A stretch of 64,000 nucleotides of DNA from Raillietiella orientalis (lineage: Eukaryota), in NCBI GenBank assembly GCA_036172245.1, contig JAYWIR010000056.1:1-64000 (forward strand). Reading direction: 5' to 3'. Each line of letters begins with the position of its first letter. Positions within the stretch are counted from its first letter, which is position 1. The notes under the pieces were generated by a model, which had not been told where the DNA came from, did no database searches, and saw nothing but the letters and a program-made list of their open reading frames with translations. Positions 322 to 56,902 of the stretch are shown piece after piece. The position numbers and the translations under genes are program-made.

Positions 322-534
322 TTGAAACCCGGGTGCGCCGGGACGTTTATTCTCACGAATAAACCTATACAATCTGTGACTGGACCAGTAGTCCAGCCAC
401 GACCTGGAAAGATATAGCCTGCCGGGCTACCGGTGCGCAGACCGGCGCGGTCGTCCTCGGCAGCAGAGGGGAGGGGGAACGAAACAAAAAGAAAACAAAA
501 AATAAACAAAAATCAGGGAGGGAGCGGGAAGGGA

Positions 535-3500
535 TCACAGTGTGCTGGGAGGGTCCGTCATCCTCTGGAGGATGCCGACAAGCTGTTTCTGCTTGTGTGG
601 TTCCAGATGGGGCCATCGCGTCGCCATCCTGAGGAAACGGGCGGCATACACATTGGCATCCCTGTAGCTGGATCCTCCCGTCGCTTTGCTCCATGCCACG
701 ACGATCCCGCGTAGGCAGCACAGGGCTGCAAGCGAGGCCGCTGGAGGCAGGGCGTCACGGACGGAGAGGGGGCGCAAAGCGTCTCTGGGGTTGCCTCCGG
801 GGATCCTCAGGGCTGCGGCAAAGCGTTCCCACAAAGGACGGAGGGCAACACAATCCACTTACAGGTGGGGGAGGTATTCCCTCTCCCCGCACCTGACACA
901 ATTAGAATTGACACCCCCCCGCGTCCAGTGGTGTCGGCGGGCGTTGCAAGGAAGTCCCCAATGCAACACCATCAGTGCCGACTGTTGCCACTTCATGGGG
1001 AGGGTGCGCGAGTCCATGAGCACCGGGAGCCACTCGAGATGTTCCTCTGGAACATCCAGTAGCTCTCCCCAGCGCAACAGTCCATTTGGGATGGTCCTCG
1101 GGGTCGAAGCGTTGGTGAGCTCACCCGTTCTCCAATCCCCGATCTTCTTTGCCCTGCTGGCGATCTTGACAGTAACCTCCCATTGTGCCGCGACGTCGCT
1201 GCCCAGATGTTCCCGTAGGGTAGGCAGTACCGCAGCAAGGGAGGTTCTTTGAGCCCACGCTCTCCTTCGAGGATACTTGAAGATTTCTCGGAGCGTGCGG
1301 TGGGCGTGAGGCCCGAACAGAGCTATTCGCTCGTGTTGCGGGCTCTGCTCGTGAGTCATCGTCCACGTGCGGACGGTTTCCTGCAACCAGGCAGGACCGT
1401 TCGCGGGGCGTACGAGGATCCGCTCCGAGTTGGTCTTCACGAGCTTGGCCGCCCTTCGAAGCTGAAGTCCGCAGTGGCAGATGGGGCTTCGGAGTGCAAA
1501 GTAGGACGAGAGTCCCGCATTGCCGGTGGCCCGCTCGACGAGGAGACGTGCAACGAGGCAACAGGAGGTGCACCAATTTTTTGCCATAAAGGCAACACCC
1601 CGGAACTGGAGCTGAAGCTCCAGCCGCTCCAGCGTCAGGAGGCCAAGACCGCTGTTCCGACGCGGAGCGCACAAGTCAGCGAGACGGACTCGGGGCCTCC
1701 CTCTGCTCCAAAGGGCTATCCTCAGGAGGTCCTTCGTCCTTTTCCTACACTCCGCTGAGGGGGGGGCAAACCAAAAGCAAGGGGCAAAGGAGGGGTGCCG
1801 CAAACGCGTTCCACGCCGCGGCCCGTTCCTGCGGGTAGAACCTGCCGTCCTGGAACGGGCCGATTGCCGCCTGAGCCTTCTGAAGGCAGCCGGACCACGC
1901 TTCCGCAGGGGAGTAGTCTCCCAACGGCACACCAAGGTACATGAAGTAACTCACCGTGGGGATCCTCAAACCGACCCAGTCCTGCTGCCCTGCCCACGCC
2001 GCTCCGACTGGCATTATGGACGACTTCGCCCTGTTCACCATAAGTCTTGTTCCCCGATGCAGCAGGTCGAAGAACTCCTCGACCGCCGAAGCCGGGGTGG
2101 ACTTAGGGAGCAGTAGCAGAAGATCGTCCGCGTATGCCGAAACCGCAGGCGTACCGGGACAATCGCGCGGCAGGTGCACCAGAGCCTCCCAGAACGCTCT
2201 CAGCACCAATTCATAGAAGGCGCTAAAGAGCAGGGGGCTAAGGCTGTCTCCCTGCCGTATGCCGCGTCGCACCGGTACTCCGTGCACGGTTTGCCCGCTG
2301 AAAAGAACATTAATGAGCGCGTCGCGCCAGCTGCAGCGCAGGTAGGCCAACAAAGAGGCCGGGAAGCCCAAGCGTTCCAGAAGCTCCAGCAGGAGATTCT
2401 GGTCGACGCTGTCAAATGCTTAACGCAAGTCGACAGCGACCGCAAGGGCTCCCTTCCCCACCCGACCGTTCCGTCTGCCGCCAACAGACGCACCGGAATA
2501 CCGGCTGCTCAATAAGCGTCTTCCTTGTTGGAGCTCTAACCATGTGGAAGCGTGGAACAGGTTCGCCTCCATGCTCCGCCCGTGAACAGCATAAGTCTGT
2601 TCCGGGCTGATGAAGATGTTGGCAACCCGTCCCAGACGCTCTGCTCACATCTTGACAATCAACTTGGCGTCCGCATTCACTATTGTGATGGGACGCCAGT
2701 TGTTCATGCTCCTTAGGTCTCCTCCCTTCGGGAGGAGCCGTACCTTTGCTGAACGAAACGAGGTGGGAACGTCACCTGTTTCACGGATCAGCAAGGTGAG
2801 CTGATGTACCAGGGGAGTAAGCTCTGCCGCGAAAGTTTGATAAAACTCCGCGGGCATGCCGTCCTCCCCTGGAGCCTTCCCCCTCTTGAGCTTTCCGATG
2901 GCCGAAAGGATCTCGTCCATCATGAAAGGCTCGTCGAGGCTTCTTTTCTCCTCCTCCCCGATAGCTGGAGCACCTTCCGGAAGCAAGAGTCGTGAGACGT
3001 CTCGCTCCGGAGGCACCCTGGCGTACAGAAAGGAGTAAAATTTCCTCACTATCCCGCGTTTCTGAGCGAGAACCGAGTGCTCCCGGCCCTGGTCGTCCAG
3101 CAAGCTGGCCGACCCGGATTGCCAGGCTTGCCTCTCGGCTCCCGCTCGATACTCTGCTAACCTGCGCATGTCGGGGGTTCTCGCGTAACGTCGGGCCTGA
3201 AGATAGCACCTTTCGTTACGCGGCCTCTCCCCAAATCCCGCAGGTAGGCGATGCAGGGGGAACTGGTCGCAGAACTCCTGGACCGACCGCTTGAAGCGGT
3301 CCCAGTCCTGAAGTGTCTGCATCCTGAAGCTCCGAATAAACGCACGGAGGTGCTCCGCCGCTTCGGGAAACTTCAGCCAGTCCCCTGGCAGACGCCACGC
3401 TGACGAGGGGGGGCCGTTGTCGCGCGGACGCACTTCGAACATGATCCGTCCATGGTCCGACAGCTCGGATGGTACCTTGCCGCGCCTGCCCACCCTAGAG

Positions 3501-4117
3501 CATAGGTGCTGATCAAGGTACACGTGATCGATGCTGCTTTTCATGGCCGTGTCCCCGGACAACAAGTTGCGCGTGTTCATTTCTGCACACAACTCGTTGA
3601 CGCGGTCGTTCAGTGTATCCGGCGCACCTGAAAGCAGGCGCAGGTTGAAATCACCTGCGATCAGGTGCGCTTTGCGAACTCCTGCATCGGTCAGCCAATC
3701 GCGTCTCAGGGCAAGGTAGAATTCCCTTCTTGCCTTCGCCCTCAACGCGTTGTTTTCGCTAGGAGCGTATAGGTTGGTGACGACCAGGTCGATAGACTCG
3801 GACCAGCTGAGAGTCAGCTGACCGACGCGACCTGCGTCATCGAACCGAACGTCCTTTATTGCGGTCTCGATGGCTCGCCGAAGCAGGAAGGCGACACCGC
3901 TTGATTTCGCGGTGCCGCAACGCCACAGCAGCCGCCCACCCGAGATCCGCTCAATCTCCCGGGCTTCATCTGCGGAGATCACGTGGATCTCCTGCAGCAG
4001 CACCAGGTCGAAGGATGCCAGGGTGGCGGCCACGTCACGCCTCTTGCCGTCGTCGCTTAGCCCGTTCACGTTCCAACAGGCGATCACAAGACGACGGCGA
4101 GAGGCGATTCCCGGCAT
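535..4117 (-). pseudogene. ORF2p: apurinic-like endonuclease + reverse transcriptase + C-terminal CCHC, with stops and frameshifts
   Basis: WNVNGL, LLQE, GDFN, SDH (APE); KAPGEDG, WRPITIVN, RQGDSLSP, YADD (RT); CVRCGERE..HL; stops at ~2645, ~2420, ~859, frameshift ~1760. Confidence 0.92.
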
Positions 4118-5712
4118 TATGGCTGGGAAAGTGGCGTCGCGACACCTGCCGCGGGGCAGGTGTAGGAAAGGTCCATCGGTACGAGGACGGAGGCCTCTTC
4201 AGGCGCCTGGGGTACCTGTTCGGCCTCCATCCTCACCATCCCCTTCGTGTCCGAGCGTGGAATTCTCTCGGGCGACGGGTCCCGGGAGTTTCCCACGCTC
4301 ATGGCACCCTCGCTACCAGAAGCCATCTCTTCCCCTTCGTCGGGTGAGACGATCTTCCGGGGCATTGTGGACTTTCGTCCTGCCTTTTTGCGGGGTGCCG
4401 CGGAGACGGATGCTGTGTTTCCGGCCTTCACCTCGGGGTCGGAAGTGGCCGACTCCTGAGGGGAAGCCGGGCGCCTGACGGCCTTCTTGCCAGCCTTGGG
4501 GGCAACCGGCTGCAGCGAGGCAGCCAGCTCCTCCGCGTCGCGCTCGAAGGCGACGTCATCGAGCGTGGGCTCGATGACGGACGCCGCCGACTCGCTCCCC
4601 TCGTTGTTGACTTTGTCAACGGAGGGTTGAGCAGGGGCAGCAGCGAGTTCTTTAGCGCCGCATCCGTCGATGGCGGGAATCCGCTCTACAACGACGCAGC
4701 AGCTTTTAATTTTTTCGCGGCGCAGAGCGGTTTCTCTCCGTTTCGCCACATTCTTTCCCTTCTTATGGGAGTTTTTCTTGGGATCGACCTTCTGCCACCC
4801 TGGCTCTTGACCCTCGACCTCGAACTTTTCGGCGTTTTTCGCCGCGGTCTCGGGGCTGGCCTTCGCCTTGGTGGCGGAGGTGACCTTAGCAGCAGCACGA
4901 GCTGCCAGCTTCTTTCTCTTTTTTGCCGCGCGCTTTCTCGCGTTTTTCGCGGACACGACGCGGACTGTGTTTTGGGGGCACACCAGACGGGTGTGCCCCG
5001 CTTGTTTGCATTGCTGGCACTGCACGCTCGGACACCTTATTTTAAGGTGACCAAAGCTGCTGCAGCAGCCGCAAAACTTTGGTTTCCTTACGTACCACAC
5101 GTCAACGGATTCACCGTTGACGGTGAGTTTGTGGGGAAACTCACATCCCTCGTGAACCGTCACTCGCGCTGCACCCAGGCCGCCAAGCACCCCGTCGTAA
5201 TCGACAAAAGGAGCAGGCTTTCCCCACAGCGCGTGGACAGTTGCAAATTTTTCTAATTCGTTCCGGACGGCCTCCTTCGTCATCCGGAACGTGATAACGG
5301 TCAGGTGAATGATCAACGACCGATCTTCAGTAATGGGGAGAAGCCTCCGGCTGCCTCTAATTACGGGGGTTCGCAGAAGTCTGTGCGCAAGAGTTGCCTT
5401 CTTGCAGATAACTTCCACAAATTGACCCCCGCTTCTGACGGACATAGCCAGAAGCTCCTCTTTTTGTACACCGAGAACGCGCATCGCCTGCGAAAAGGCG
5501 CGCGCGTTCTCGGGAGAATATAAACCGCCTACCTTATATAGAAGGGGTGGGTTATACCCCTCCTCCAGGTAAGCGCGCATTTCCGCCATAGCCGATGGCG
5601 TAGGTGCCGCAGCCACGGCGTTCCAAGCCCTGGGTAGGGCCGGGGGCGCATCCATGCTAGCGGAAGCCTCCACTGATGCGGGAGCCCCCACCTCCATCTC
5701 CTCCGGGGGCAT
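4117..5712 (-). CDS. ORF1p, gag-like RNA-binding protein with two CCHC zinc knuckles (intact, 531 aa)
   Basis: CGCCSSFGHLKIRC and CQQCKQAGHTRLVC knuckles; basic and low-complexity C-terminus; stop overlaps ORF2 start (TAATG). Confidence 0.9.
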   Translation of the reverse strand: MPPEEMEVGAPASVEASASMDAPPALPRAWNAVAAAPTPSAMAEMRAYLEEGYNPPLLYKVGGLYSPENARAFSQAMRVLGVQKEELLAMSVRSGGQFVEVICKKATLAHRLLRTPVIRGSRRLLPITEDRSLIIHLTVITFRMTKEAVRNELEKFATVHALWGKPAPFVDYDGVLGGLGAARVTVHEGCEFPHKLTVNGESVDVWYVRKPKFCGCCSSFGHLKIRCPSVQCQQCKQAGHTRLVCPQNTVRVVSAKNARKRAAKKRKKLAARAAAKVTSATKAKASPETAAKNAEKFEVEGQEPGWQKVDPKKNSHKKGKNVAKRRETALRREKIKSCCVVVERIPAIDGCGAKELAAAPAQPSVDKVNNEGSESAASVIEPTLDDVAFERDAEELAASLQPVAPKAGKKAVRRPASPQESATSDPEVKAGNTASVSAAPRKKAGRKSTMPRKIVSPDEGEEMASGSEGAMSVGNSRDPSPERIPRSDTKGMVRMEAEQVPQAPEEASVLVPMDLSYTCPAAGVATPLSQP

Positions 5713-5830
5713 TGCCCCCGGATCCTAACCGGTGGTGGTATCAGGCATTGCTGCCTAATCCTCCACCCACACCACGCACAAGCACCAGCGGAAATGAAAC
5801 TCAGGAGCAACGAAAAGACACGTCCGCTCG

Positions 5831-8571
5831 ACGCTCCGGAATCTCCAGGACTTGGATCTTTTTAAGAAATCGGTCCGGGAGTTCTGCGAGCAGTTCCCCC
5901 TGGACCGCCTGCCCTCCGGATACGGCGAGGGTCCTCGCAACCATCGGGCCTATTTACAGGCCCGTAGGTACGAGCGAACCCCTAATGTCCGTCGCCTGGC
6001 CGAGTACCGCGCCGGGGCCGAACGCCAATCCTGGCAATCCGGGTCGGCCAGCTTTCTGGGCGACCAGGGCCGGGAATGTTCGTCCCCGGCGTCGGTACGG
6101 CATCTCGTGCGGAGTTATTATTCCCGCTTCGTTTCGGTCAGCCAGAGTGAGGCTCCTTCCGAAAGGAAGAGACCTTAGGAATTTGAACAACTGGCGTCCG
6201 ATCACGATTGTGAATACGTACGCCAAGTTGATTGCCGGGCTATGGGCTTCGCGTCTGGGGCAGGTGCAGAATCCATAATTAGCCCGGAGCAGACATATGC
6301 TGTTCCCGGGCGAAGTATGGATGCCAACCTCTTCTTCGCGAGCACATGGATGCACGCGCAGAGGTGTCAAAAGGAAGGGAAAGGAAAAATCGGCAACCCC
6401 ACTTTGGGGCCGCCAGCAGGGCAGGGAATGGACTCTGGGGCGCGGAAGGGGGCGTTAGCGCTCGCAGTCGATCTCCATAAGGTGTTCGACTGTGTTGATC
6501 AGGGGCTTTTGTTGGAGCTCCTGGGTCGCATGGGCTTCCCACCCTCCTTGATTACCTACCTGCCTTCTTGCTGGCGGAATGCGATTATTTCCGTCTCTTT
6601 CAGCAGTCAGAAGGTGCATGGCGTGCCGGTGCGGGGGGGCATAAGGCAGGGAGATAGCCTCAGTCCCCTGCTCTTCAGCACCTACTTTGAGTTGGTGCTG
6701 AGAGCCTACAGGGTGACTTTGGCCTCCTTGCCCAGCTCGTGCCTCGGTACGCCAGCCGTAGAGGCGTATGCCGACGATCTTCTGCTCCTGTTACCTATGT
6801 CCACCTCGGCGAAGGCGGTCGGAGACTTCTTCGATCTGCTCAGCCGTGGGACCGGACTGCAGGTCAACAGGGCGAAGTCGTCGGTGGTGCCAGTAGGTGC
6901 GGCGTGGGCAGGGCAGCAGGACTGGGTCCGTCTGGGGATCCCCACGGCGAGGTGCCTCAAGTTCCTTGGTGTGCCGTTGGATGACTGCTCCCTTGCGGAA
7001 GCGTGGTCTAGCTGTCTTCAAAAAGTTGAGACGGCGATCGGCCCGTTCCTGGAAGGCAACTTTTACTTGCCGGAACGGGCCGCGGTTTGTAACGTTTTTG
7101 CGGCCCCCATTCTCCGCTTCTTGCTTTTTGTTTGCTCCGCTCCCAGAGAATGCAAAAAGAGGACAAAGGACCTCCTCCGCATAGCCCTTTGGGGCAAGGG
7201 GAGGCCCCGAGTCTCTCTGAAGGACTTGTGCGCTCCGCGTCGGGACGGCGGCCTTGGCCTCCTGACGCTGGAGCGCGTAGAAATCCAGCTGCGGTGGCGA
7301 ACCCTCGCCATCGCAGCGAAGATGTGGAGCACCCCTTGGTGCGTTCCGACTTGCCTTCTCGCCAGGCGTGTGTCCCGATGCGAAGGACTCGCGTCGTTTC
7401 TTCTGTGCCCTGGCCGGAGGATCCGAAGATGCGGCCTTATGCTCGGACGCATAGCAACCCTGGCGAAGACGAACGGTTGGATGGTTTGTGGCCCCACCAA
7501 CTCCTCTGCCTGGTTGGAAGAGTCTGCTGGCACATGGGCTAAGCAGCACCGGAGGAGTGAAAACAATATGAACTGCCTGCGAATCGGCCCATACGCCAAC
7601 CGCGCCCTGCGGGAAATACTGGAATTTCCCCGCAGTCGCAGGTAGGCGTTGACGACCATCCTTGCTACGGCGATGCCCTACATCCTGAGGGCGCTTCAGC
7701 ATCGCCAGAAGCCGAGGTGGCAAGTCACCTGCCAGATCGCAGGCAGGGAGATGTTAAGCGGCTGGACCACAGGAGAACTGGCGGACGCCACGACCCCGAG
7801 CGTCCAGCCGCGTGGATTGATGAGATGGGGCGAGCTGCTCGCCATCCCTACGGATGTGCTGAAGTGGCCCCCGGTACTAAAGGAATCCAGGATCCTGCCC
7901 CTTATGTGGCAAGAGTCGGCGTTGCTACTGCTGCACTGGGGATTACCCTGCAACGCCCGCCGTTTCCACTGGACAAGGGGAACTGTGGATCCTTAGTGTG
8001 TCAGGTGCGGAGAGCGGGAATCGCTCTTCCAATTAATTGTGGACTGTGCTGCCATCCGACCCCTCTAGGAACGGTTCGGGGCGACCCTCGGGCTCCCTAC
8101 GGGCAGCACTCCCAGAGACGTTCTTCGGCCCTTCTTCGTGAAGGACGCACTGCAGCCAGCCGCAGCCATCGCAGCCTTGTGCTGTGTCCGTGGCATCGTG
8201 GCGGCATGGAGCGACGCCAATAACGAAGGAGTGGGTCCACACGCGAGGGATGTCATTTCATACGCCCAACTCTTCATGCGGAGAGCTGCCGGATGGTCTT
8301 AACTGGGGAATATACGGACGGACCTCGAGGGCTTCCTTCAACGGATGGGCCCTCCTCACAGCGTTTAGTGATCCCTTCCCTGCCCTCCAACCTCTTTTGT
8401 TTGTTTGCGTTTTTATTTTTACTTTTGTTTTTCCTCATCACCTTTCGTTGCCGAGGAGTGCCACACCGGGCTGCGTTCCGGCGTCCCGGTAGGTCCTGTG
8501 CATAAGGCCGTGAGCGAGTCCTGGTACCGTGATTGTAGAGTTTTTCATTAATAAACGCCCCGGGCGTACCA
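5831..8571 (+). mobile_element. Family A copy A1, right part (linker, RT, C-terminus, 3'UTR), internal deletion near 6120
   Basis: FKKSVREFCEQFP, WRPITIVN, DLHKVFD, QGDSLSP, YADD; ends AATAAACGCCCCGGGCGTACC. Confidence 0.9.
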
Positions 8572-9692
8572 GCGTGGCAACTTCCACCCAGGCGTCGGAG
8601 GATAAAACCGCGAAAGACGCAGGAGGGGAGGAGAGATGGCAACTGGTTAAGGTGGGGAAAGAAAAAAAGAAGATTCTGGGAGAGCAAAAGTCGGAGAAAA
8701 AAACTGCCGGCAAAAAGAAAAAAGCCGCGCCGCTTTCAAAAAAACTCCGCAAGTGCTCGGTGGCATTGGAACGCTTAGCTGTTCCTTCGGAGTTCGCCCG
8801 CGGCAATGTTCAGCAAACAGCTGATGGGGTCGCGATCGAAACTAGCGTGGACGAGCTCACTCTAAGTTTAGAGGATGAGACGCGAGACTTGCGCTCCGAA
8901 AGCGAGGACGCCGCGTCCGATAAGGTCGCGGAGGAGCCCGCGGCAACGTTGGCAGGCAGCGATGACGCGTCTTTCGAGAAGGCCGCGGAGAAACTCGCGG
9001 CAACGCTTGCCGAGCACGAAACCCTGTCGCTTAAGGGCGTCCGCAGGCCGGCTCCAAAGAAAATGCCTCCCGCAGGTGAGTCCGATCGGGAGGCCGGAAA
9101 CTCATCATCCTCCGCGCAGGCATCTCTTCGAAAGTCAGGACGTAAGTCCCAAACACCCAAGAGGTGACCTCCCGTTTCGAACGAGGAGGAGAAGCCGGAA
9201 GCCGAAGGCAGCGTGGGAAACCCGAAGGGGGAACTCCCACGCTCGGAAGCCGGCGCACAGGCAACGCCTATGAAGGAAGGTGAGCAGGGTAACGAAGCCA
9301 ACCCTGCATGCGCAGAACCCGAAAAGCCCGCCCCTATGGAGGAGGGCGATCAGGTAGGCGCGACCACACCTTCGGGCGATGCGCCTGACGCGCCGACACC
9401 AAAGGAGGAGGAGGATCAGGTGCTCCACGCACCGACAGTCCGCCTCCAAGCGTCCCGCCCCAACAGGTGTCGGACGCCGCACTGCCACTTTCCCAGGATT
9501 AACACCTGGGCTCGCTTGTCGCCGTCGGATACGCGTGGCCTGTTGGAATGTCAACGGGCTGCGCGACGACGGCAACAGACGAGAAACGGCCGACACCCTG
9601 CGTGAGTTCGACCTGGCCCTGCTGCAGGAGATCCACGTGATCACCTCGGCAGACGTCCAGGAGATCGAGACGATCGCGGGGGTCGACTGTTT
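8572..9692 (+). mobile_element. Family A copy A2: ORF1 C-terminal half and APE N-terminus
   Basis: KCSVALERL..FEKAAEKLAA (ORF1); ACWNVNGLRDDG..LLQEIHV (APE); ends at GTCGACTGTTT. Confidence 0.85.
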
Positions 9693-10725
9693 GTCATCCG
9701 GGTGCGCCGGGGCGTTTATCACAAACTAACCGGGAACAAAGTTCCCGGACAAAGGGGAAAACAAGAGACGAAGGGGGTGGGATCCCCGACACGCAGGTCT
9801 GTATGCTGAAAGTCCGGAACGGGAGGGAGGGGACCACAAATACACTACTATAAAAAAAATAAAAATAAAAATATGGAGGGCAGGGGACAGGGGTCTTTGG
9901 TGAGTCCGTTCCTTCCTTTCAAAACCGGCGATGGATGCCGGCGATCTCTTTCCTTACGTCCTGTAGAAGATGGGCCCACTCGGCAGCCGAGGACAGGCTT
10001 GCGCTGGCTAATCCGGTGGGCTGACGAACGATGGCCAGCTTCTCCAACTCTCGGTGGGCCTTAGCGATGGCGCGGGTGCAACACACGGTTGCAACGACAG
10101 CACCCAAAGACAGGCCGCCTGGCGTGAAGAAGCGGCGCATCAAGTCCCTCGCGGCGTCCCCCTGGTGCAGGAGAGCTGAGGTTAGCCTCCGCCAAAGTCC
10201 TTGGAGGGCACCGCAGTCCAGGAGGAGGTTCGGAAGCGTTTCAACTTCCCGGCACCGCTTACAGTTTGGGGAGACAACTACCCCGGAAACACGGTTCGTA
10301 CGCTGGTTGGAGTGAAAACCCCAATGCACCAGCATGATGACGTCCTGCTTCCACGAAAGGAAGAACACAGAAGTGTTCAAACAGGAGGGAGGGACCACAA
10401 GTTCTTCGGGAGGCACACTCAAGTGTTCACTCCACCGAAGGAGTCCCTTCGAGATGTGGCGAGGCGTGGCGGCGTCTGCCAGCTCGCAAGTCCTCCAGCC
10501 GCCAATAGGTCGCGTTATTCCTGCGATGGTGCAGGCGACCTTCCATCTCGACGGATCGCAGCTGTCATCTCTTCCCCTGAGGGCTGACAGTCCGTCGGCG
10601 AGGGGGGTGTGGGCCAGGCCGGTCCACTTCTCCTGGCTGCTGCAGACCTCATTCACCGTGTAGTACGGGGAGAGGTGAACGCAACGGAGTTGGAGGATGG
10701 AAACATCCTGGTGCTCACGAAAGGT
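9693..10725 (-). mobile_element. Family B copy B1, 5'-truncated (ORF2 C-terminus ..IAGIHRRF and 3'UTR)
   Basis: ORF 9919-10656 with CKRC..ETLPNL; 3' terminal hairpin motif at 9693-9720. Confidence 0.85.
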
Positions 10726-10729
10726 GACG

Positions 10730-13600: not shown

Positions 13601-13689
13601 CTGCACACATGAAGATAACTGAATAGAAAATATCAGCCGATCATAGGAATAGAAATCACGAGAATTCTTATTTATTAACCCAACATCGG

Positions 13690-14447: not shown

Positions 14448-14569
14448 ATTAACCCAACATCGGTCAAAATTTTGTCTTCAATACAGGAAGAGTTTAAATA
14501 TTGCTTCAAGCCAGAGCTTGGAGCATAACCTTTTTTAAATTTATCTATGGCTTCAGGCGAAATCGTGCG

Positions 14570-18246: not shown

Positions 18247-18251
18247 TCATT

Positions 18252-46128: not shown

Positions 46129-46366
46129 GGCACTCCACGTCCTCGGCGTTGCCAGGGATGATTCCGGGGCGGATGCCCCTGATTCTGTGGGTCGTGGGGG
46201 GGGGGCTAGCCTCCCTCACTCCTACCTCCATCGTGGTGTCCTCTGGCAGCGATGCCATCGGACACCAACGATATGAAACAGCACACAACCAAAAAAACCC
46301 GCTTTCCGGTACTCGTACGCGGAGCGCCGGAAAAACACGTCCGCTCTCGAGGAGAGGGAGTTGGGG

Positions 46367-47931
46367 TTATCACCCGGGTACGCCCGGGGCGTTTATTTGT
46401 AAACTCTACATGCGTGGTACGAGGCCCCACCACGGCCGTAAACACAGGACCTGTCGGGACACCGGAACGCAGCCCGGCGTGGCACTCCCCGACAGCGAAA
46501 GGGGATGAGGGGAAAAAAACAAAAAGAAAAATAAAGAAATAAAAAAACAAAAAGAGTTTGGAGGGCAGGGTAGGGATCACTGGTCGCTGTGAGGAGGGCC
46601 CATCCTTCGAAGGAGGCCCTCGAGGTCTCTCCGCATACCTCCCAGCTGGGCCATGCGGCAGCTCTCCGCAAGAAGCGTTGCGCGTATGGGATGACATCCC
46701 TCGCGTGTGGACCCCCTCCTTCGTTGTTGGCGTCGCTCCATGCCGCCACGATACCACGGACGCAGCACAAGGCTGCGATGGCTGCGGCTGGCTGCAGTGC
46801 GTCTTTTACGAAGAGGGGCCGAAGAACGTCTCTGGGGGTGCTGTTCGTAGGGAGCCCGAGGGTCGTCCCGAACCGTTCCCAAAGGGGTCGGAGGGCAGCA
46901 CAATCCACAATAAGGTGGAGGAGCGACTCCCGCTCCCCGCACCTGACACACGCAGGATCCACAGCTTCCCTCGTCCAGTGGAAGCGGCGCGCGTTGCAGG
47001 GTAGACCCCAGTGCAACAGGAGCAACGCCGACTCTTGCCACTTGAGGGGCGGGATCCTGGATTCCTTCATCACCGGGGGCCACTTAAGCTCATCCCTGGG
47101 GATGGCGAGCAGCTCGCCCCATCTTACTAATCCTCGCGGCTGGATGCTCGGGGTCGTGGCGTCTGCCAGTTCTCCTGTTTTCCAGCCGCTTATCAACTTC
47201 TCCCGTCCCTCGATGCAGCAGGAGACTTGCCACCTTGGCGTCCGGCTGCTGTGAAGTGCCCTCCTCAGGAAGGGCAGCGCCGTAGCTAGGCAGGTCGTCT
47301 CCGCCCACGTGCATCTTGCTGGACTCTCCAAGAGATTCCGCAGCGTGCAGCGGGCGTAAGGGCCGCATCGGAGACGATTCCAGTCTCGTGGCTTCTCTGG
47401 TTAACCACTGCCCACGTTCCAATATTCTCCTCCAGCCAGGCGGGGGAGTTGGCGGGGCAGCAAACCATCCAGCTGTTCTCCTTGGCCAATGTCGCCATGC
47501 GCCCGAGCAGTAGGCCGCATCTTTGCATCTTCCGGCCAGGGCTCAGAAGAAAATATGCGAGTCCATCGCACCGGGACACACGGCTGGCCAGGAGGCGGGC
47601 CGGAGTGCACCAAGGGGTGCTCCACATCTTCGCTGAGATGGCGAGAGTTCGCCACCGCAGCTGCTTCTTCACGCGCTCCAGCGTCAGGAGGCCAAGACCG
47701 CCGTCCCGACGCGGAGCGCACAAGTCCTTCAGAGGGACTCGGGGCCTCCCCTTGCCCCAAAGGGCGATACGGAGGAGGTCCTTCGTCCTCTTCTTGGATT
47801 CCACGGTGGGGGTGCAAACAAAAAGCAAGGGGCGGAGGATGGGAGCCGCGAAGGCGTTCCAAACTGCGGCCCGTTCCGGCAAGTGAAACTTGCCTTCCAG
47901 TAACGGGCCGATCGCCGTCTCGACTTTTTGG
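46367..47931 (-). mobile_element. Family A copy A7, 5'-truncated, 13-bp TSD GAGGGAGTTGGGG (46354-46366 / 47932-47944)
   Basis: ORF2 post-RT region and C-terminus; exact TSD. Confidence 0.9.
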
Positions 47932-48024
47932 GAGGGAGTTGGGGAAGGGGTCCGTACGCGTACGTACGGACTGAGAGGACGTACGTACGCGCTCGACGTT
48001 ACTCCAGGACCCTCGATGTACACA

Positions 48025-49316
48025 GGCTAGCAGAATAACGTGCGGGAGCCGTGAGACAAGCCTGGCAATCGGGGTCGGCCGGCTTGCTGGACGACCAGGG
48101 CTGGGAGCACTGGGCTTCCGCTCAGGTAAAGGGGATTATAAAAAAATTTTATTTCTTCCTTTACGCGAGAGCGCCTCCAGAGCGGGATGTCGCGTGACTC
48201 TTGCTCCCGGAAGGGGCCTTTACGATCGGGGAGGCGGACAGATAGAACCTTGATGAGCCTTTCACGGTGGGTGAAATGATTACCGCCATCGGAAAGCTCA
48301 AGAGGCGCAAGGCTCCAGGGAGGACGGCCTGCCAGTTAAATTTTTTCAATGTTTTGAGGCAGGGCTCACTCCCCTGGTGCAGAAACTCACCTTGCTAATG
48401 AGCGAGACAGGCAACCGCCTGAGAGTTGGCTTGAGACCCATTTCAAGAAAACAGGTTTTACTGGGTCCTGGTGAGTAACACTTCCGTGGCTCCCTTCTCC
48501 ACCTTCTGCTTTTTGTTCGTTTCTTGGAACAGAGAAGTAGGAAAAGGACGAAGGACCTCCTGAGCATCGACGTTTGCGGCAAAGGTAGGTCCCGAGTCCG
48601 GTTGAAAGGCTTGTGCGCTCCGCGTCGGGAAGGCGGTATCGGCCTCCTGCCACGGGAGTGGCTGGGGCTTCTGCTCTATTTCAGGATTCTTGCCCTTGCA
48701 GCAAAGCTATGGAGCACCAACTGGTGCGTTTCTGCACACCTCGCAGTGCAGTCCAGTCACCGGCATCGCGGGACTTGAGTCTTTCGTTGCAGTCTTTAAC
48801 CGTCACATCTCCCATTGCGGATTGCAGCTTCGAAGGGTGGCCACCGTTACGAGGAAGGTCTCAGGATGGATCTCCTGCCGCCCCGCGATGGGTAGCTCCT
48901 GGCTACAGAATACCGGTCGCACCTGGGCAAGTAGTCAGGAGCAAGGCACGGAACAGGTGCGAAGATTCCTGTTCGTGCGCAACAATCGTTTCACGCTCCA
49001 AGAGATCCTGGAGGATCCTGGAAAAACCGCATGGGCAGGAAGAACTTCCTTCGCTACAGCGCTGCTCTCTTACAGGGAGCACCTGAGCAGCACCATCGCG
49101 GCAAAATGGGAAGTTTTGATGAAAATCCCCGGGAAGGAGAAGGGGCTCGAAAAATGAAAATCGGATAAGCTGACCAGAGATGCGACCCCGAGTACAACCT
49201 CAAATGGTCTTTTGCACTTAGCGATTCGCTGGATGTTTCGGTGGAACACCTGGTATGGCTCCCGGTGCTCATGGACACGCGCATCTTCCCCATGAAGTGG
49301 CAGCAGTCGGTGCTGT
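48025..49316 (+). mobile_element. D-like element remnant D3 (linker/RT N-terminus, deletion, C-terminal region)
   Basis: QAWQSGSAGLLDDQG..LDEPF..KAPG; LCAPRREGG; FPMKWQQSVL. Confidence 0.8.
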
Positions 49317-49905
49317 TTCACACCCAGGGTGTGCCGGTGCGCTTATTTCTTCACAAAACAAACGAACAAACATGTGTAGGGCTATAGACCCTACAACATC
49401 CGATAAAAATTCTGAACTTGCCGAGTAGTCAGCGCTCAGGTCGGCGACTTCGACTCGGCAGCGGAGGGGGAAGAGACAAACAAAAACACAAAAAGAAAGC
49501 ACTATTTACAAAAGCAAGGGGTACGGGGGAGGGATCACGTTCCACTGGGTCGTCCTCTGCATCTTTCCTAGGATACTGGCAAGTTCAGTCCGCATACGTC
49601 CCACATGGGAACATTCGGCTGCCGTCCTCAGGAAGCGCAGGACGGAGCAGATTGCGTCCCTATCGTTCTGTCCAACAGGGAACGTTAATGTCCCTCGATA
49701 CGATCCCATGGTACGATGCAGCATCGCCCTATTCATCTCGAGTGCCATGATAAGAAGGACGAAGATGAAGAATACGGGGACCAAGGTCCCCGCCATGAAC
49801 ATCTTTCGAGGGATCATCAGGCGGGAGATTGGGGTCAGGAATTGCGGTAAGAAACCCGCGTGGACTTACCGCTAAATCTTGCAAAAATCGCGGAAGTAGC
49901 AAACG
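49317..49905 (-). mobile_element. Family E, 5'-truncated 3' end
   Basis: ..ELASILGKMQ.., GTGATCCCTCCC after the ORF, T-rich tract, terminal AATAAGCGCACCGG..CCTGGGTG. Confidence 0.7.
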
Positions 49906-52900
49906 CGAGTGCACCGCCCTATATCCCACAGTAACCCATTCCGAGAAAACCACCCCGATCATGACATTGCAAACGCTACGTGCGCAATTGTGAACTGTGG
50001 TAATCCACAGATGAAGTACGAATTACGTTGTTATTGCCGTGGAAACTGTAAATTTTGTCGTTAGTTAATTTAGCCCACCGCATGACAGTTTAGGGAACAA
50101 AAACCACAGTCACAAAAAGTGCAGAGAGTAGGGCAGGAAATCGCAGACATGCTTTTAGGGATGCTTAAGATCAGTTTTTGATTTGATGGGGAACCTATTG
50201 CCTTCCCAGTACCCTTTGTTTGATCTCGATGATCTGTGCTTCCACTTTCGAGGTGAGAGATGCCCTCTCACTTGCTTGCCGCGCCTTAGATTTCTTTCTC
50301 GTCATTCCTCTTGACTTCCCTGGTTTTTGCATGCACACCCATTTCTGTCGTTCGGCAGGATACAGATGGTCCTCCGAAGAAATGAATTTTGTTGTGTATT
50401 TCCTCACGTAAAGAACTCCGAGTAAGGAGTATTCGGTCATTTTTCTTTGATATGCAGCATGGTTTTATGGAATCCGCAGCATCCGAGTTCCTTCATATAC
50501 CAGACATCGACAGTTCGTCGTCGATCTTTATTATGTGGGATCCAACCGAATGTTCCGTGGGTGGTCAAGCTTGCTGCGGAAAGGCCTCTAAATCATCATG
50601 GGAAATGTTGGAGGGACAAGGCTCCACGATAGAGCGTGGATGATGCCATGTTTGGAATCTTCGACGAGCTCGGCGCTCTTCTCCAGGCGCACAGTCTTCC
50701 AGTAAATGATCCCTTGCTCCGCAAAAGAGCTCACTACCATCTGCATTGGATAAGGTTTTTGGTAACCGCTGTGAGAGGTCTGCATCTTCCCTGGTAAGCC
50801 CGAAGAGTTGTTGGAGAAAGTTTTATCAGCTCCTACTGCTGAATACCTGCGCCACTTTCTCAAAAGAACGCGCTGTTTGAGATTAAGCAGGCTTACGTCA
50901 TAAGTCACGGGAGACTTGCGAGCGGATGCTGAGTTCTGTCAAGAACTCAGCATCCGTTGCGTCCGACGCTGGTAGATAGGAGGCCACAGTCCATTATTGC
51001 GCTGATTCCACGAAAGGCTATTTAAACGAATGTCCTTAATTATATGATTCACAGTGTGGCAGAGACCACAGCCTGGCTATCAAGGCTGGTTCCCTTAGGA
51101 AGAGCTGCCTTGGTGAACTACTGAATCTCGACAAATGCACAAACTATCTCCAAACTTTGTCGAACATAAAGCATCTCCAAAACACGCGCGTACATACTAA
51201 GGTACAGATAATCAGTAAGTCTTGCAAAAAGAAATCTAGAAGCCTAGAATAGGGTCAACAACCCCATCCTAAGCATGAACCTCGAGTTTGTCTTCAGGAA
51301 GCTCTCGTCGATAGTAGCAGCTACTTTGCCAATAGTATGCACGGATGACCCTGCAGTGCGGAATTACTTTGACAAACTTCTGCCGCACATGTTGAATCCA
51401 GCAGCTTTGCTCGAAACTTTGCTGGTCATAAATACCGTCTCACTGTCCTGTTATCTGTAACGGACAAACTGTGTTTTCGCCTATATAATGGCACAAAGAT
51501 AAGGATGGTCATCACAGTGGTGTGGCGATCAGTTCTTCACACACGGAGGCGTTGGGTTGAGCAATTCAGTGGTCGCAGTGTCTTCCTGCGTCGGAATTGC
51601 AAAGTCAGAGATGCTAATGTGGTCAGTTTTTCCAGGCGGACACGAGCCAAAGTCCGGAACCGAATTCGCGCGTCTATCTCATGGTTTAGAGGTCTTACGT
51701 TTTGGTCCATTCATTCGGTATAGTTTCCTGCCTACTCCCAAATGAGGAAAACATTCTGAGCTGTTTGTGTTCTCTCGGAGACTGGATGGCAATTCGGCAG
51801 ATGCTCGAATGGACACCTTGGAAAAGATGAAACTGTGAGTGCAGTTTCGCATACTTTAGTGTCCGTGCAAATAGGGGATCGCGGAGAATTTCCACCTGCC
51901 GACGGCGGCGCAGGGCCCACTTCCTTGGTGTGCGGCCACTTGCAGCAAGTTGCAAGAGCGAAAGTCAACGAGAGCTTTTCGAGAACGCATTTCAAGAAGA
52001 AATATCAGCTTTTGGGGCTGCTGTCCATGGAGACGCAAAGAACCCATTGAAACCTTCACTTACATGCACCGTATCAAATGAAAAAGAAGGATCAACAACC
52101 ATCCATTCACCGCAGGCGTAGAGGAATTTCCAGACGTTTCGTTCTTTTGCAATTTTCTGAGTCCACTAGTGATATGGTTTTTCTCACAGATGTGGAAAAT
52201 CATCTGATGGAAACGTCAAATGAGTGGAAGAAGCGCATTCCACCTGGCTTCTTTCTAAAAAAAAAAACAAGGCTCTGATCTGTGAAAGAACACCATCCTC
52301 AGCGCCTCTTTTCTATTTCGAGGAAGGCATTCTTTCTTGTTGACAAGGAGCTGCAGTCCTGCTTGAGAACATCCAAAATTCAAGCGCTCTCGTGGCAAGC
52401 CTCTCTTACCACGATCAGAAATGTAATCAAAGATCATTACTCTCAGCTTGGCTCAAATTACTCGAACTCTTATTGAATCTCTTGTGCCTTTTCTGCTTAG
52501 CACAGGAGAGTGGATATCTGAGAGCCGGAGGCTGCTGTACCTAAAGGAATGCATTCGTGAATTACAGGGCACTTTTCTGCGTTTCGTTCATTTTATTACC
52601 ATCAACAGAGAAAGCCCGAAAGAAACTCTGAACATGAAGCAGCGAATAACACGGGCATCTCATCTCTCCATGGAAGAGCGATTCCAGCTGCAGGAACCAC
52701 AGTACAATGAGTTCAAAACTGCCATGTTCTACACAGCAGGAGGAATGAAGTGATTTCCAGAAACATTTTCCCTCTCTCGTTTTCTGGAAAGCCTTCGAAT
52801 GCGTATCGCATGCAGAACCTTCCAACCAAAGGTCTCGAGTCGTTGTGTGCGAGGGAAGCAGTTATCGGCAAATCACGACACCTTCACAGCAGTTAAGATG

Positions 52901-54582
52901 GTAAGTTCCTACGTCATCGTGACGCCTTCCACAAGCTGAGCGTGCAAATTTCATGAACACTCACACAGCCAAGCGCTCAGCTTTCTCACGGTGGTATCCT
53001 CTTTACACGTTCTGGACCTCAGTGCATTTGGCGGGAAGCTGCGTGCGACGGCTGATTTCGACTGAATGCTCAAAGGCGAGAGCAAAGAGCAATTCGTGAC
53101 GGTCGCTGGATGGGAGGGAAAGGGTGAAGAGAACTTCATCGCTCACGCTCAAACAAGCCAAGGAACAACAAGTCCAGCTTGGGGATTCACTCTTTTGAAA
53201 TGCAGTCGTAAAGCAGTGATGTGAGAATCGCGCTTATGAGATAGGGACCGTTTGGGCATCTACGTCTTGCCGTTTGCGCAATCTCAGAAAGAAGCGTCTT
53301 TCATTTCGAGGTTGAATCTTCTCTGCGATGCCCGAGTCTCCCGGTTGTGATCACTTCGTTAGTAATTTCTGCGCCTCGGGCCGGTAATGCGCATTCGGCT
53401 GCAGAAAACGCAAATTTAGTTGTCGTTGAAGAAACGCAGCTTCCATGCCAAAGCGCAAGTACAGAAAAGAGGTCATCCGTTTCCCCGCGTCACCATTCAT
53501 CTTGCGCTACGGCGAAATGAAACACCCAGTTCGTGATGGGTTTTCTCCGCATCACACACTGCGACGGCTGCTGGCACTAGCGACGGCAGCTGCCAGGTCT
53601 AGACTTACCTGGTACTTTGGCTGGAGAGTGCACGCTCTCTGACTCAGCAGTTGCAGGAAACATGGATTCTCGCTCGTAACGGAGCTCTGGATCTCTTTCT
53701 CGGCGGTCCGCTGTTGCTAGTAAAGAAGTGAGGCGGGAAAAATGCGCGTTTGCACCAGCAAGCCTCTGATGTTGTTGGATCTCCAACATTTTATCCCATC
53801 AACAGAAGATCGAAATATGTGTCACCATCCTAGAAAGTCGTCCGTTAATAGTTGACTCCAAAGGCACAGTGCGATTATTACTTTTTTTACGCAAGGGTGT
53901 AGGATTCCGTCTGATGGCCGGTGAGCAGCTCGCACAATAGCAGCGGCCTGTTCTGAATCCTGCCGTGTACTTTTGCAAGAAAGAGCCAAGGAACGATGGG
54001 GCAAAGTCTTCCGTAACATTCGCGGACTGCTTCGCGTCGTTCGAGAAAACGCTCCTGGACATCACTCTTTGCCTATGGAACGAAAGCAGCCCTCCACTGA
54101 CTGTGCTGAAGAGCCAGTGCGTGCAAAAATAGAGAGAATGTATCCCGGCTTCACGAGCCATGCCGATATGGAAACAGATTACATGGCAACCTTCACAACG
54201 CAAACAGCTCCCTGCGAGGCACTTTCCTCTTTTCTCGCACTGAGACGCTGCACCGTGGTCCATTGCGGGCTACGACCAGGGAAAACCCTTGGATCTCATG
54301 CAGTCCCGCAAAAGGCAGTGTCTGGCTTCAGGAAATCATGAGCACATGGGCGGAGATTAACGAGTGGATCCTCAAGATATGGCAACGGCAGCTGCACTTT
54401 TTCTACAACTGCTTGCTCCAGCGGTGATGGGGCAACCCACCAAGTGCGCATGATCTGGGCGAACTTCCTTTGCTGCCACGCTGCCGTTTCTGCAAATCCA
54501 TCCTGGTAGCAGCAAGCTAACGGCGAGATAGAAAGTCTTCTGCGAAATAGCATCCAGAAGAAGGACGCTTACTATTTGAACC

Positions 54583-56860
54583 ACGGGACAGCTTACTGAA
54601 GCTGCGACACCAAGTCTGCAACCTCAGGTGAGTTGGGGTGAGCTGCTAAGCATTCCCCTCGGGGGATTGGTGCGTAGCCGGAATTCCGGTGTGTGCGCCG
54701 GCAAAGGGCCAGATGGTCGGGTGGAGGAAGGAGCCCTTGCGGTCGCAGTCGACTTGCGGAAAGCATTCGATTGCGTCGACCAGAATCTCCTTCTGGAGCT
54801 TCTGGAACGCTTGGGCTTCCCGGCCTCATTATTGGCCATTCTGCGCTCCAGCTGGCGCGACGCGCTGATCAATCTCTCTTTCAGCGGGCAGACCGTGCAC
54901 GGCGTGCCGGTGCGGCGTGCGATCCTGCAGGGAGACAGCCTGAGCCCCTTGCTCTTCAGTACCTACTTTAAGTTGGTACTGAGAGCGTACAGGGGAACTC
55001 TGGCGCACCTGCCGCACAACTGCGCCGGTACGCCGGCGGTTTCAGCGTACGCGGACGACCTTCTGCTGCTGCTCCCTATGTCCACCCCGGCTTCGGCGGT
55101 CGAGGAGTTCTTCGACCTGCTGAATCGGGGAACCAGACTTACGGTGAACAGGGCGAAGTCGTCCGTGATGCCAGTTGGTGCGGCGTGAGCAGGGCAGCAG
55201 GGCTGGGTCCGTTTGGTGATCCCCACGGTGAGGTACTTCAAGTACCTTGGTGTGCCGTTGGGGGACCACTCCCCTGCGTAAGCGTGTTCCGGTAGACTCC
55301 AAAAAGTAGTGACGGCGATCGGCCCCTTCCGAGGCGGCAGGTTTTTCCTGCCTGAACAGGTCGCGGTTTGGAACACGTTCGCGGCTCCTCTCCTCCGTTC
55401 CCTGCTTTTTGTTTGTTCCCCCACAGAGAGGATTAAAAAGCGGACAAAGGACATCCTCCGTATCGCCCTTTGGGGCAACGGGAGGGCCAGAGTCCGCTTG
55501 AAGGACTTGTGCGCTCCGCGTCGGGACGGTGGTCTCGGCCTCCTGACATTGGAGCGGCTGGAGCTTCAGCTCCAGTTCCGGATGTTGGCCGTTGTGCCGG
55601 AGTTCTGGTGCACCTGCTGGTGCGTCCCTGCACGTCTCCACGTCAAGAAAGCCACCGGGAAGAGGGGACTCACGTCCTTTCTTTCACTCCATCGTTCCCG
55701 CATCATCCGATGTGGGCTCCAGCTGTGGAGGGTGGCTGCCTTGGTTCGGAAAAACCAAGGATGGATCACCTGTAGCCCCGCGAACGGTAGTGTCTGGTTG
55801 CAGGAAACCGTTCGCACGTGGGCACAGTGCGGCATGCAACGCGCCCAACAGGAACGACGCTTCTTGTTTGGGTGCTACAGAAGTTGCGCGCTCCGAGAGA
55901 TCCTGGAGGATCCGAACAAGAGGGCGTGGGCAGGAAGAACCCCCTTCGCTGCTGCGCTGCCAACTATGATGGAAGATCTGGACAGCGATGTTGCGGCGAA
56001 GTGGGAGGTTAACATGATAATCTCCGGAAAGGAGAAGGAGATATGAGAGTCGAAGACGGGCCAGCTTACAGACGCTGTGTACCCGAGTACGCTCCCCATG
56101 GACTCCTTTGCTAGGGCTCGCTGCTCGATGTTCCGATTGAACGTCTGAAGTGGCCCCGCTACTAATGAACACCTCTATCCTCCCGATAAAATGGCAAGAG
56201 TCGGCATTCCTGTTGCAGCACTGGGGACTCCCCTGCAACGCCCGTCGACACCACTGGACCTGGGGAGCGGTGGATCCCAATTGTGTTAGGTGTGGGGAAC
56301 GGGAGTCCCTCCCCCACCTCCTAGTGGATTGTGTTGCCCTTCGGCCCCTTTGGTTCCGCTTTGCCGCGTCCATCGGAATCCCCTGCGGCAACCCCAGGGA
56401 CGCCTTAAAAGCCCTCTTCGTTGCCGGCGCCCTTCGGCCAGCGGCCTCGATAGCAGCCTTCTTCTGCCTTCGCGGGATCGTCGCCGCATGCAGCACGGCT
56501 ACGGGAGGACCAAGCGATCAGGATGCCATCCAGTGTGCCTCCCAATTCCTGAGGAGGGCGTCGCGATGGCCCCACCTGAATTCTCAAATACAGCAAGAGC
56601 TTTCCGGCATCCTGAGAAGGATGATGCGGCCCCAGCAGCAACAGTGATCCCTTCCCGTACCCTCCCACTCTTTTTTTCTTTTTGTTTAGTCTTTTGTTTT
56701 TCCCCCTTCCCCTGCTGCCTTGGTGGACCGTACCGGTCTGCGAACCGATGACCGGGCAGGCTCCGTGTTTCTCCGTGCGTGGCTGGAGCATTGCTGCAGC
56801 CACTGGCATCTTTGTTAAAGTTTATTTTTATATAAAGGACCCGGCGAAATTCGGGTGAAA
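54583..56860 (+). mobile_element. Family D copy D4, 5'-truncated (RT to 3' end)
   Basis: DLRKAFD, QGDSLSP, YADD, CVRCGERESLPHL, ..GILRRM; terminal TATAAAGGACCCGG-CGAAA-TTCGGGTGAAA. Confidence 0.9.
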
Positions 56861-56902
56861 ATCAAAAGCTTTACGCAGATCGACTGCGACCGCAAGGGCT
56901 CC
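56861..56902 (-). mobile_element. 42-bp remnant of another element's RT motif A
   Basis: Reverse complement GGAGCCCTTGCGGTCGCAGTCGATCTGCGTAAAGCTTTTGAT = GALAVAVDLRKAFD. Confidence 0.85.

Follow-up and report, generated by a model that had tools for sequence, protein, structure and literature searches.

A stretch of 64,000 nucleotides from Raillietiella orientalis (assembly GCA_036172245.1, contig JAYWIR010000056.1, positions 1 to 64,000 of the forward strand; this whole stretch is called the window below) contains many truncated long interspersed nuclear elements (LINEs) lying in and beside one another. An earlier account made from the letters of this DNA (the sequence-only reading) had listed eight insertions of one transposable element (TE) into another, all of them antisense to their host, and had ascribed this either to strand-specific targeting of sibling elements or to selection for a locus whose transcripts carry antisense TE sequence. 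Here we show that a general antisense rule is not supported, and that the targeting idea is partly supported for one family, named B: all three B 3' termini in the window abut the same nucleotide of the endonuclease (EN) coding sequence of an H-type element, always in antisense orientation. On balance, we consider it probable that the window is a LINE graveyard in which no general antisense rule is demonstrated and in which family B has repeatedly entered H-type elements at one nucleotide.

The GC content of the window alternates between blocks of ~60% and blocks of ~40%, and a self-BLAST showed that the GC-rich blocks are related repeats on both strands. A Pfam scan of 259 stop-to-stop frames of at least 90 amino acids (aa) found RVT_1 in six frames, Exo_endo_phos in one and zf-RVT in one. 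The proteins of D1, a near-complete element, were used as a ruler and compared by tblastn with the whole window, followed likewise by a 589-codon first open reading frame (ORF1; 44449-46215). About 25 fragments were mapped in this way, and they were assigned to families A, B and D, to an ORF1-bearing 5' part named H, to a tiny element named E, and to one 6-kb element of another type.

Intact 3' termini were defined by a 3'-terminal motif, which was used as a sequence landmark only. The 22-nt motif has exactly four matches in the window (D1 and three B copies), with none expected by chance. On its own strand, the D1 3' end consists of the conserved motif followed by 8 nt, without poly(A); the A copies carry a close variant of the motif, and E and D4 carry degenerate versions. 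At the other end, the same dozen bases open D1 and the H-type copies H', H2 and H3. Folding of eight 3' termini predicted a hairpin of 4-6 bp in four of them (D1, B1, A6 and D4), with z-scores of -2.6 to +1.4, which is not better than shuffled sequence.

The three B 3' ends lie at one nucleotide of the H-type endonuclease sequence

The copies around the three B 3' termini are as follows (positions in the reverse transcriptase, RT, are given on its RTa and RTb parts where these were used).

5831 to 8581, plus strand: A2, right part of an A element; copy of the target-site duplication (TSD) of D1 at 5831-5846, then EN aa 283, RT and C-terminus; intact 3' terminus at ~8550-8581, which aligns with the termini of A4', A5 and A6
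8598 to 9689, plus strand: H1, 5'-truncated H-type copy (ORF1 aa ~280 to EN aa ~88); tblastn with the H3 ORF1 places aa 272-538 at 8556-9410, and EN aa 20-87 lie at 9478-9681
9690 to 10714, minus strand: B1, 3' part of B (RTb aa 217 to the 3' terminus), frame open, with no stop in the shared frame
10715 to 12670, minus strand: H', H-type copy with an intact 5' terminus at 12670, ORF1 and EN aa 20-62 (tblastn, alignments)
30806 to 31031, plus strand: left piece of B2 (RT motif A to aa 175, A2 numbering; Pfam RVT_1, tblastn)
37077 to 38913, plus strand: right piece of B2 (RT aa 176 to the 3' terminus; self-BLAST, tblastn, 3' motif)
38914 to 39739, minus strand: H2, H-type copy with an intact 5' terminus, ORF1 pieces and EN aa 13-97, cut by the B2 3' end
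39740 to 40644, minus strand: A4', 3' part of A (RTb aa 238 to the 3' terminus), head-to-tail with the H2 5' terminus
42984 to 44517, plus strand: B3, 3' part of B (RTa aa ~184 to the 3' terminus), frame open (tblastn, 3' motif)
44518 to 46349, minus strand: H3, H-type copy whose 5' terminus is intact; its ORF1 frame is complete (589 codons) and is followed by ~13 codons of EN; a deletion of ~198 nt lies beside the B junction
46350 to 47930, minus strand: A6, 3' part of A (RTa aa 180 to the 3' terminus), head-to-tail with the H3 5' terminus

The three B/H junctions are referred to as J1 (at 9693, B1/H1), J2 (38909, B2/H2) and J3 (44514, B3/H3), and the alignments place the B 3' ends at 9689/9690, ~38913 and 44517/44518, respectively. 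Since the stretches around J1 to J3 align straight through the join, the limit of the host was set by adding the uninterrupted EN gene of D1. At each junction the host H stops at EN aa ~88, and what comes next is B in reverse, first its 8-nt tail and then its 3' motif. Because this is the same junction at the same nucleotide, J1, J2 and J3 are not three random draws of orientation. The 5' ends of the B copies, on the other hand, are all different, lying at RT motif A (B2), RTa aa ~184 (B3) and RTb aa 217 (B1), and so are their left neighbours.

Whether the B copies are separate insertions or copies made as DNA was assessed from synonymous differences. Raw codon-position counts are partly confounded by the GC content of third codon positions, and therefore stratified counts were used together with a permutation test in which the substitutions found are redistributed over sites that match in base and CpG status (2000 permutations per comparison). 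B3 and B1 differ at 78 sites, 40 of them synonymous when 22.2 were expected, a value that no permutation reached; the same holds for B3 and B2 (79 synonymous of 191, 54.9 expected, 0/2000), and for B1 and B2 the excess was reached by 30 of 2000 permutations (57 of 159, 44.5 expected). The neighbouring segments behave likewise: A2 against A6 in the RT part (47 of 115, 31.0 expected, 0/2000) and in the C-terminal part (25 of 58, 14.4 expected, 3/2000), A6 against A4' (31 of 72, 20.7 expected, 8/2000), H3 against H1 (40 of 98, 28.6 expected, 14/2000), and H1 against H2 at the end of ORF1 (15/2000). In two short EN comparisons the excess was not significant (133/2000 and 261/2000), and A6 against A5 showed none (63 of 209, 56.1 expected, 315/2000), probably due to a frame shift inside the stretch. 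Four wrong-frame controls gave no excess (1854-1998 of 2000 permutations reached the observed value), and B1 and B3 have no stop in their shared frame, compared with 2-8 in the wrong frames. Even divergence would be expected of dead duplicates, whereas these copies differ mainly at synonymous sites, which makes it probable that B inserted three separate times at one site and that the junctions are not DNA copies of a dead insert. Long open frames persist despite their broken context (589 codons in the H3 ORF1 at 44449-46215 on the minus strand, and 535 codons in B3 at 42650-44254 on the plus strand), and these long frames, together with the synonymous-biased divergence, suggest that the families of H3 and B3 were active fairly recently.

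Several observations weigh against repeated insertion. On the other side of the B copies the interrupted H does not resume, and at J1 an inverted H copy lies there. J2 and J3, which are 5 kb apart, both have an adjoining join of an A 3' terminus to an H 5' terminus. No other pair is as similar as J1 and J3 in either the A segment (85.6%) or the B segment (89.8%; B1 and B3 are 89.6% identical in the self-BLAST), and their 40-nt host flanks differ by one mismatch and one indel, a similarity above that of H sequence elsewhere (P=0.027 for a divergence of 13%). An H copy whose site is unoccupied, or a B copy at some other place, would help to gauge the site specificity; the window has neither, and the sample of B consists of three copies, all in one 64-kb window.

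The common A/H join and the closeness of J1 and J3 are what DNA duplication, perhaps with later gene conversion, would predict, and it is the main rival of repeated insertion. According to this explanation, a single insertion of B into H lay inside a composite block, [B][H][3' part of A], which was copied twice more as DNA and then decayed; this would account for the identical junction nucleotide in J1 to J3, for the A/H join common to J2 and J3, and for the similarity of J1 and J3 in the A and B segments and in their near-identical 40-nt flank. We nevertheless regard it as unlikely. The synonymous enrichment in B, H and A alike, with negative wrong-frame controls, and the open frames of B1 and B3 are at odds with decay of dead copies, and the 5' ends of B and its left neighbours differ in all three units. 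In addition, divergence is uneven along the unit shared by J1 and J3, with identities of ~90% in B, ~86% in A and ~80% in H, and if neutral divergence equals the synonymous divergence (~22%, our estimate from difference counts), a 40-nt flank with at most one mismatch has a probability of P=0.0006.

Two further candidates for the B/H junctions were rejected. Twin priming yields head-to-head joins and not joins of a tail to an internal position, and a 38-nt 3' transduction carried by B3 is a less simple explanation than the ~198-nt deletion in H3.

Orientation of the junctions in the window

The other elements that take part in the antisense junctions are listed below.

1 to 320, plus strand: left part of the A element that hosts D1 (EN aa ~190-290); tblastn with the D1 EN places aa 190-273 at 3-254 (56% identity), and the 16-bp target duplication lies at its end (305-320)
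321 to 5830, minus strand: D1, near-complete 5.5-kb element without long terminal repeats (a non-LTR element) of the apurinic/apyrimidinic endonuclease (APE) type, with Pfam Exo_endo_phos and RVT_1 and the 16-bp TSD on both sides; ORF1 at 4120-5724, EN at 2648-4198, RT at 862-2419, 3' motif at 329-350
29782 to 30805, minus strand: D2, D-like copy that comprises the 5' end and ORF1 aa 38-321 and whose 5' end adjoins B2 at the K-A-F codons of RT motif A
31032 to 37076, minus strand: R2-like non-LTR element of the restriction-like endonuclease (RLE) type, with a poly(A) tail, an RT, and a CCHC and RLE domain at 31566-31961
47967 to 49315, plus strand: D3, D-like fragment (EN aa 327-476, RTb aa 69-327), its right end cut by the E 3' terminus
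49316 to 49360, minus strand: E, degenerate 3'-terminal motif of a related element, read from the shared 3' motif
54676 to 56860, plus strand: D4, D element that begins a little upstream of RT motif A and runs to the 3' terminus; its identity to D1 is 77%
56861 to 56990, minus strand: RT scrap ending at motif A (..D-L-R-K-A-F-D), which is the host sequence at the 3' junction of D4 (17 aa by tblastn, E=0.04)

All eight junctions of the sequence-only reading were recovered within 0-5 nt, and every one of them joins opposite strands. They also all lie in ORF2-coding sequence, which is unremarkable because truncated LINE copies are mostly ORF2, and the two unrelated endonuclease types that had been named are indeed involved (APE-type according to Pfam, RLE-type according to the alignment with the R2 domain). 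The description of the eight as resolvable insertions, however, applies to only two of them. D1 is flanked by the 16-bp duplication ACGCTCCGGAATCTCC at 305-320 and 5831-5846, and its host A reads on across the insert, with EN aa 190-273 at 3-254 and the EN from aa 283 starting at 5819; the R2-like element interrupts B2, whose RT is contiguous across the insert at aa 175/176 (A2 numbering), giving a clean antisense nest. The other six are one-sided: past the far end of the insert, the host does not resume.

The non-B junctions among these six are those of D2, whose 5' end meets B2 at 30805/30806, of E, whose 3' terminus lies at 49315/49316 against RTb aa 327 of D3, and of D4, whose 3' end lies at 56860/56861 against the RT motif A scrap. 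For E, the degenerate 3'-terminal motif is present at the junction, as claimed, whereas the body of the element is without Pfam or tblastn support: none of 141 short ORFs examined carries a TE family by Pfam, and tblastn likewise gave nothing coherent. In a contig from one sequencing run (X1, presumably of DNA), 49310 is followed by 56218, the corresponding place in D4, and D3 thus has a relative without the interruption. For D4, an RT on the opposite strand does lie at the junction, although this host is a scrap of only ~40-130 nt. The sequence to the right of the D4 junction (56990-64000) has no TE protein homology and no Pfam family.

It should be noted that the window also contains five same-strand junctions with an intact element terminus, which were absent from the earlier count. 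At ~8581, the complete 3' terminus of A2 meets H1 at ORF1 aa ~280. At 12670, the full-length 5' terminus of H' meets another, more distantly related element at ORF1 aa ~497 (45% identity in protein), and at ~40645 the complete 3' terminus of A5 meets A4' at RTb aa 238. Finally, at ~39740 and ~46350 the 3' terminus of an A copy (A4' and A6, respectively) is joined to the exact 5' start of an H copy (H2 and H3). Two copies in these junctions have not been listed above.

12689 to 13390, minus strand: H'', ORF1 fragment (aa 260-497) of a more distant element (tblastn, 45% identity), adjoining the H' 5' terminus on the same strand
40647 to 42980, minus strand: A5, an A copy from the EN/RT linker to the intact 3' terminus, which adjoins an internal position of A4' on the same strand

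The joins at ~8572 and ~12670 had been judged to look like deletions; both are junctions of a terminus with an internal position of a different element, and because intact termini meet different elements there, they are not internal deletions. The join at ~10714, where H' EN aa 62 is followed by B1 RTb aa 217 on the same strand, may be either a deletion or a sense junction. On the former interpretation, H' and B1 could belong to a single element that kept its 5' and 3' termini and lost internal sequence, in which case H would be the 5' part of family B and not of A. A 322-codon open frame (9922-10887, minus strand) crosses this join in frame, from H' (EN aa ~20-62) into B1 (RTb aa 217 to the end).

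With sense and antisense junctions scored alike by an intact terminus, the ratio is 8 antisense to 5 sense (two-sided binomial p=0.58). Counting recurrent junction types once gives 6 to 4 (p=0.75), merging D2 and D4 as well gives 5 to 4 (p=1.0), and among all adjacent pairs of TE fragments 13 are in opposite and 7 in the same orientation (p=0.26). The value of 1/256 that had been attached to eight of eight presupposed independence; the three B junctions are one and the same, D2 and D4 lie on the same host codons, and the sense junctions had been omitted. The collapsed count still has an antisense majority (6:4), leaving room for a weak bias, which is a further point against the reading that we favor.

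A real general antisense preference, due to strand-specific targeting of transcribed siblings or to a source locus of PIWI-interacting RNAs (piRNAs) or small interfering RNAs selected for antisense TE sequence, could appeal to this majority, which persists at 8:5, 6:4 and 5:4, to the fact that all eight junctions first named are antisense, and to the possible second recurrent antisense site described in the next section. We consider such a preference improbable: no corrected tally differs from 1:1, five sense junctions have intact termini, and TE sequence is interleaved on both strands (~12.2 kb on the plus and ~24.7 kb on the minus strand), so that there is no single antisense orientation relative to one transcript. 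The idea of a piRNA-like source locus finds no support in the window. Equally improbable, in our opinion, is that orientation was random and sense nests were lost by direct-repeat recombination or hidden, so that the survivors look antisense, a caveat that the sequence-only reading had itself raised. That the sense joins at ~8572 and ~12670 had passed for deletions, and that H1, H2, H3 and D3 carry internal deletions, would fit this explanation, whereas applying the same scoring rule to sense junctions leaves little bias to explain, and no recombination product has been demonstrated.

The K-A-F-D codons as a candidate second site

The 3' end of D4 adjoins the minus-strand scrap that ends in ..D-L-R-K-A-F-D, and the 5' end of D2 adjoins B2 where the latter starts at K-A-F. 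These are the two sides expected of an antisense insertion of a D-type element at the same host RT motif A codons. Of the 12 nucleotides shared by the two sites, four differ, mostly at third codon positions, and therefore two different hosts fit better than the two copies of one TSD. D2 and D4 do not overlap in element coordinates, and one insertion split by rearrangement is the other interpretation that may apply. In a simulation, eight random sites in 1700 codons gave a pair within 4 codons 14% of the time. On its own, the case for the K-A-F-D codons as a second recurrent target site is only suggestive.

The R2-like insert

The 6-kb element at 31032-37076 differs in type from the surrounding families. 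It starts with a T-run at 31032, the complement of a minus-strand poly(A); among solved proteins, those of R2 are nearest to its RT (E=5e-17), and its CCHC and RLE stretch aligns with the C-terminal endonuclease domain of R2 (E=3.5e-4). RVT_1 reaches the Pfam cutoff, and the weak match to zf-C2H2_4 at 34207-34662 falls below it (22.1 bits, with a cutoff of 27). The sequence-only reading had called this element Utopia-like. The domain order agrees with that name: in the section of PMC4640811 concerned, Utopia elements are described as having N-terminal zinc finger(s), an RT, and a C-terminal zinc finger with an RLE. These domains are, however, common to the whole RLE group, and there is no U2 gene nearby; a search of the window with Rfam gave no matches, and hence no U2 small nuclear RNA (snRNA) or ribosomal RNA (rRNA) near the insert. 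The insert thus resembles R2 and Utopia elements in its C2H2-type finger (weak and below cutoff), its R2-closest RT and its CCHC and RLE C-terminus, and differs from them in its location, which is the RT-coding sequence of a LINE (B2) and not a U2 snRNA gene.

A probable origin of the array

The array was probably built by target-primed reverse transcription, through which copies of at least four sibling APE-type families (A, B, D and the ORF1-bearing H copies) inserted into or beside each other, as did one R2-like element. The marks of this process are seen in the intact 3' termini, the variable 5' ends and the one 16-bp target duplication. The sibling families share the conserved 3'-terminal motif and lack poly(A), and the array was probably broken later by deletions and by an insert of Wolbachia-derived DNA. 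The eight antisense junctions amount to ~5-6 independent events beside 4-5 sense junctions. What is not random is family B alone, whose orientation relative to its host would be fixed by target recognition and not by chance. The site and strand of B may be set by a sequence-specific nick made by the B endonuclease. Alternatively, a read-through B RNA with sibling sequence at its 3' end may pair with nicked sibling DNA. For R2, PMC11194090 describes template jumping, in which more than one RNA is copied, and pairing of the primer with downstream target sequence that the RNA carries.

The joins at ~39740 and ~46350, which link an intact 3' terminus to an exact 5' terminus, are of the kind that template jumping produces, and the A/H head-to-tail joins may have arisen when the reverse transcriptase, on reaching the 5' end of one RNA, moved on to the 3' end of a second. 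Where truncated copies lie head-to-head, both target strands may have served for priming. In the twin priming of L1, priming from both target strands inverts part of one element. The 5'-truncated pairs A5/B3 (42980-42984) and A6/D3 (47930-47967) have the same head-to-head arrangement, whereas their two arms belong to different families with overlapping coordinates. B3(+) at 42984 and A6(-) at 47930 both start within ~3 codons of RTa aa 180-184, each head-to-head with a truncated element (A5 and D3, respectively). A single inversion by recombination between inverted RT segments was considered for these starts and rejected, since undoing the inversion restores no continuity.

A more far-reaching version of our reading, which we offer as a tentative possibility, is that B homes antisense, and always at one nucleotide, into the EN gene of a sibling LINE family, perhaps by means of read-through RNA that carries sibling sequence, and that elements of the D2/D4 type may home likewise to the K-A-F-D codons of a sibling RT. 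The families would then be a guild whose members use the ORF2 of one another as a safe landing site, or disable competitors, and the antisense pattern would arise without host selection for small RNAs.

A probable Wolbachia-derived block

14194 to 29700, both strands: low-GC block with scrambled gene fragments of Wolbachia type (GC 36-45%, Pfam, GyrA identity)

This block, located between LINE copies, consists of short, scrambled pieces of bacterial genes on both strands, which include an ABC transporter, a NADH-quinone oxidoreductase/antiporter subunit, MlaE, a carboxylesterase, the N-terminus of PutA, GyrA and a GTPase. The eight frames of the window with bacterial-type Pfam families are all truncated ORFs within it. 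The GyrA fragment has 84-96% protein identity to records of Wolbachia and related Rickettsiales, and the block looks like a degraded nuclear transfer of Wolbachia DNA, although chimeric assembly may have joined it to the LINE copies. Such a transfer would point to an arthropod or a filarial nematode as host. Nuclear Wolbachia transfers are known from arthropod and nematode genomes. The window resembles them in having Wolbachia-type gene fragments between host retrotransposons on one contig, and differs in that the pieces are short, scrambled and on both strands. Two LINE 3' fragments of ~510 nt, at 13688-14193 (+) and 26980-27491 (-), are 93% identical and inverted, and bracket most of the block; they could be an inverted duplication or part of a composite rearrangement.

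Relatives of the families

A search for protein relatives of A, B, D and H (1-13400, 37000-49300 and 54200-56900) in a collection of 5.8 billion proteins gave one match at 52% identity; the other 82 were at 35% or less, the best-scoring ones at 26-30%. Distant relatives of the A and D proteins have the EN, RT and zf-RVT architecture, and a protein atlas returned generic EN and RT clusters only. The 3' motif had no matches in metagenome contigs and none in viral contigs, and a search of metagenome contigs with the B protein gave 64 pattern matches, none of which was confirmed. The A/B/D/H families seem to come from a poorly sampled host lineage, as judged from these protein identities. Among sequencing runs, X1 matched the window with a 0.07 share of words, and no RNA run was listed. 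When short contigs of run X1 were compared with positions 37001-57000 at 80% likeness, 579 were placed, of which 384 were less than 90% alike, showing that A-, B- and D-like copies are numerous in X1. None of the X1 contigs among the matches listed bridges a B/H junction, and 49674-54342 has next to no X1 cover, which proves nothing.

Relation to known systems and implications

The behavior of B recalls that of target-specific LINEs. R1 and Tx1 are presented, in the part of PMC4640811 that deals with them, as the APE-encoding clades with target-specific non-LTR groups. Like these, B lies in a fixed orientation at a single nucleotide of a target present in many copies, and its copies keep the 3' end whole while the 5' truncation varies. 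It differs from them in its target, which is the EN-coding sequence of a sibling LINE in antisense and not rRNA, snRNA, transfer RNA, a microsatellite or a telomeric repeat. The likeness is one of behavior, and the best identities over long proteins, 26-30% with one match at 52%, assign A, B and D to no named clade. Tx1L reportedly targets another transposon. In the portions covered of the literature on orientation bias of nested insertions and on sequence-specific LINEs, there is no report of a LINE that targets the endonuclease gene of another LINE, which is weak evidence of absence.

The window may also be compared with piRNA clusters. In Drosophila, flamenco is a one-strand and 42AB a two-strand piRNA cluster. 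As in these clusters, the window is a TE-dense region of nested, truncated and mostly dead copies of several families. In a one-strand cluster, however, the TEs are mostly in one orientation, whereas the window carries many on both strands.

In summary, counts of nested orientation need one rule for both orientations and have to collapse recurrent junctions. The antisense pattern, if true, would have meant a new rule of transposon biology or a source locus of small RNAs. The window is in addition an example of what looks like Wolbachia-derived DNA lodged in a LINE-rich region. The site specificity of B, if it holds genome-wide, would add the coding sequence of another LINE to the targets of site-specific LINEs, and would be relevant to the question of how families of transposons compete or reach places where they can land without harm.

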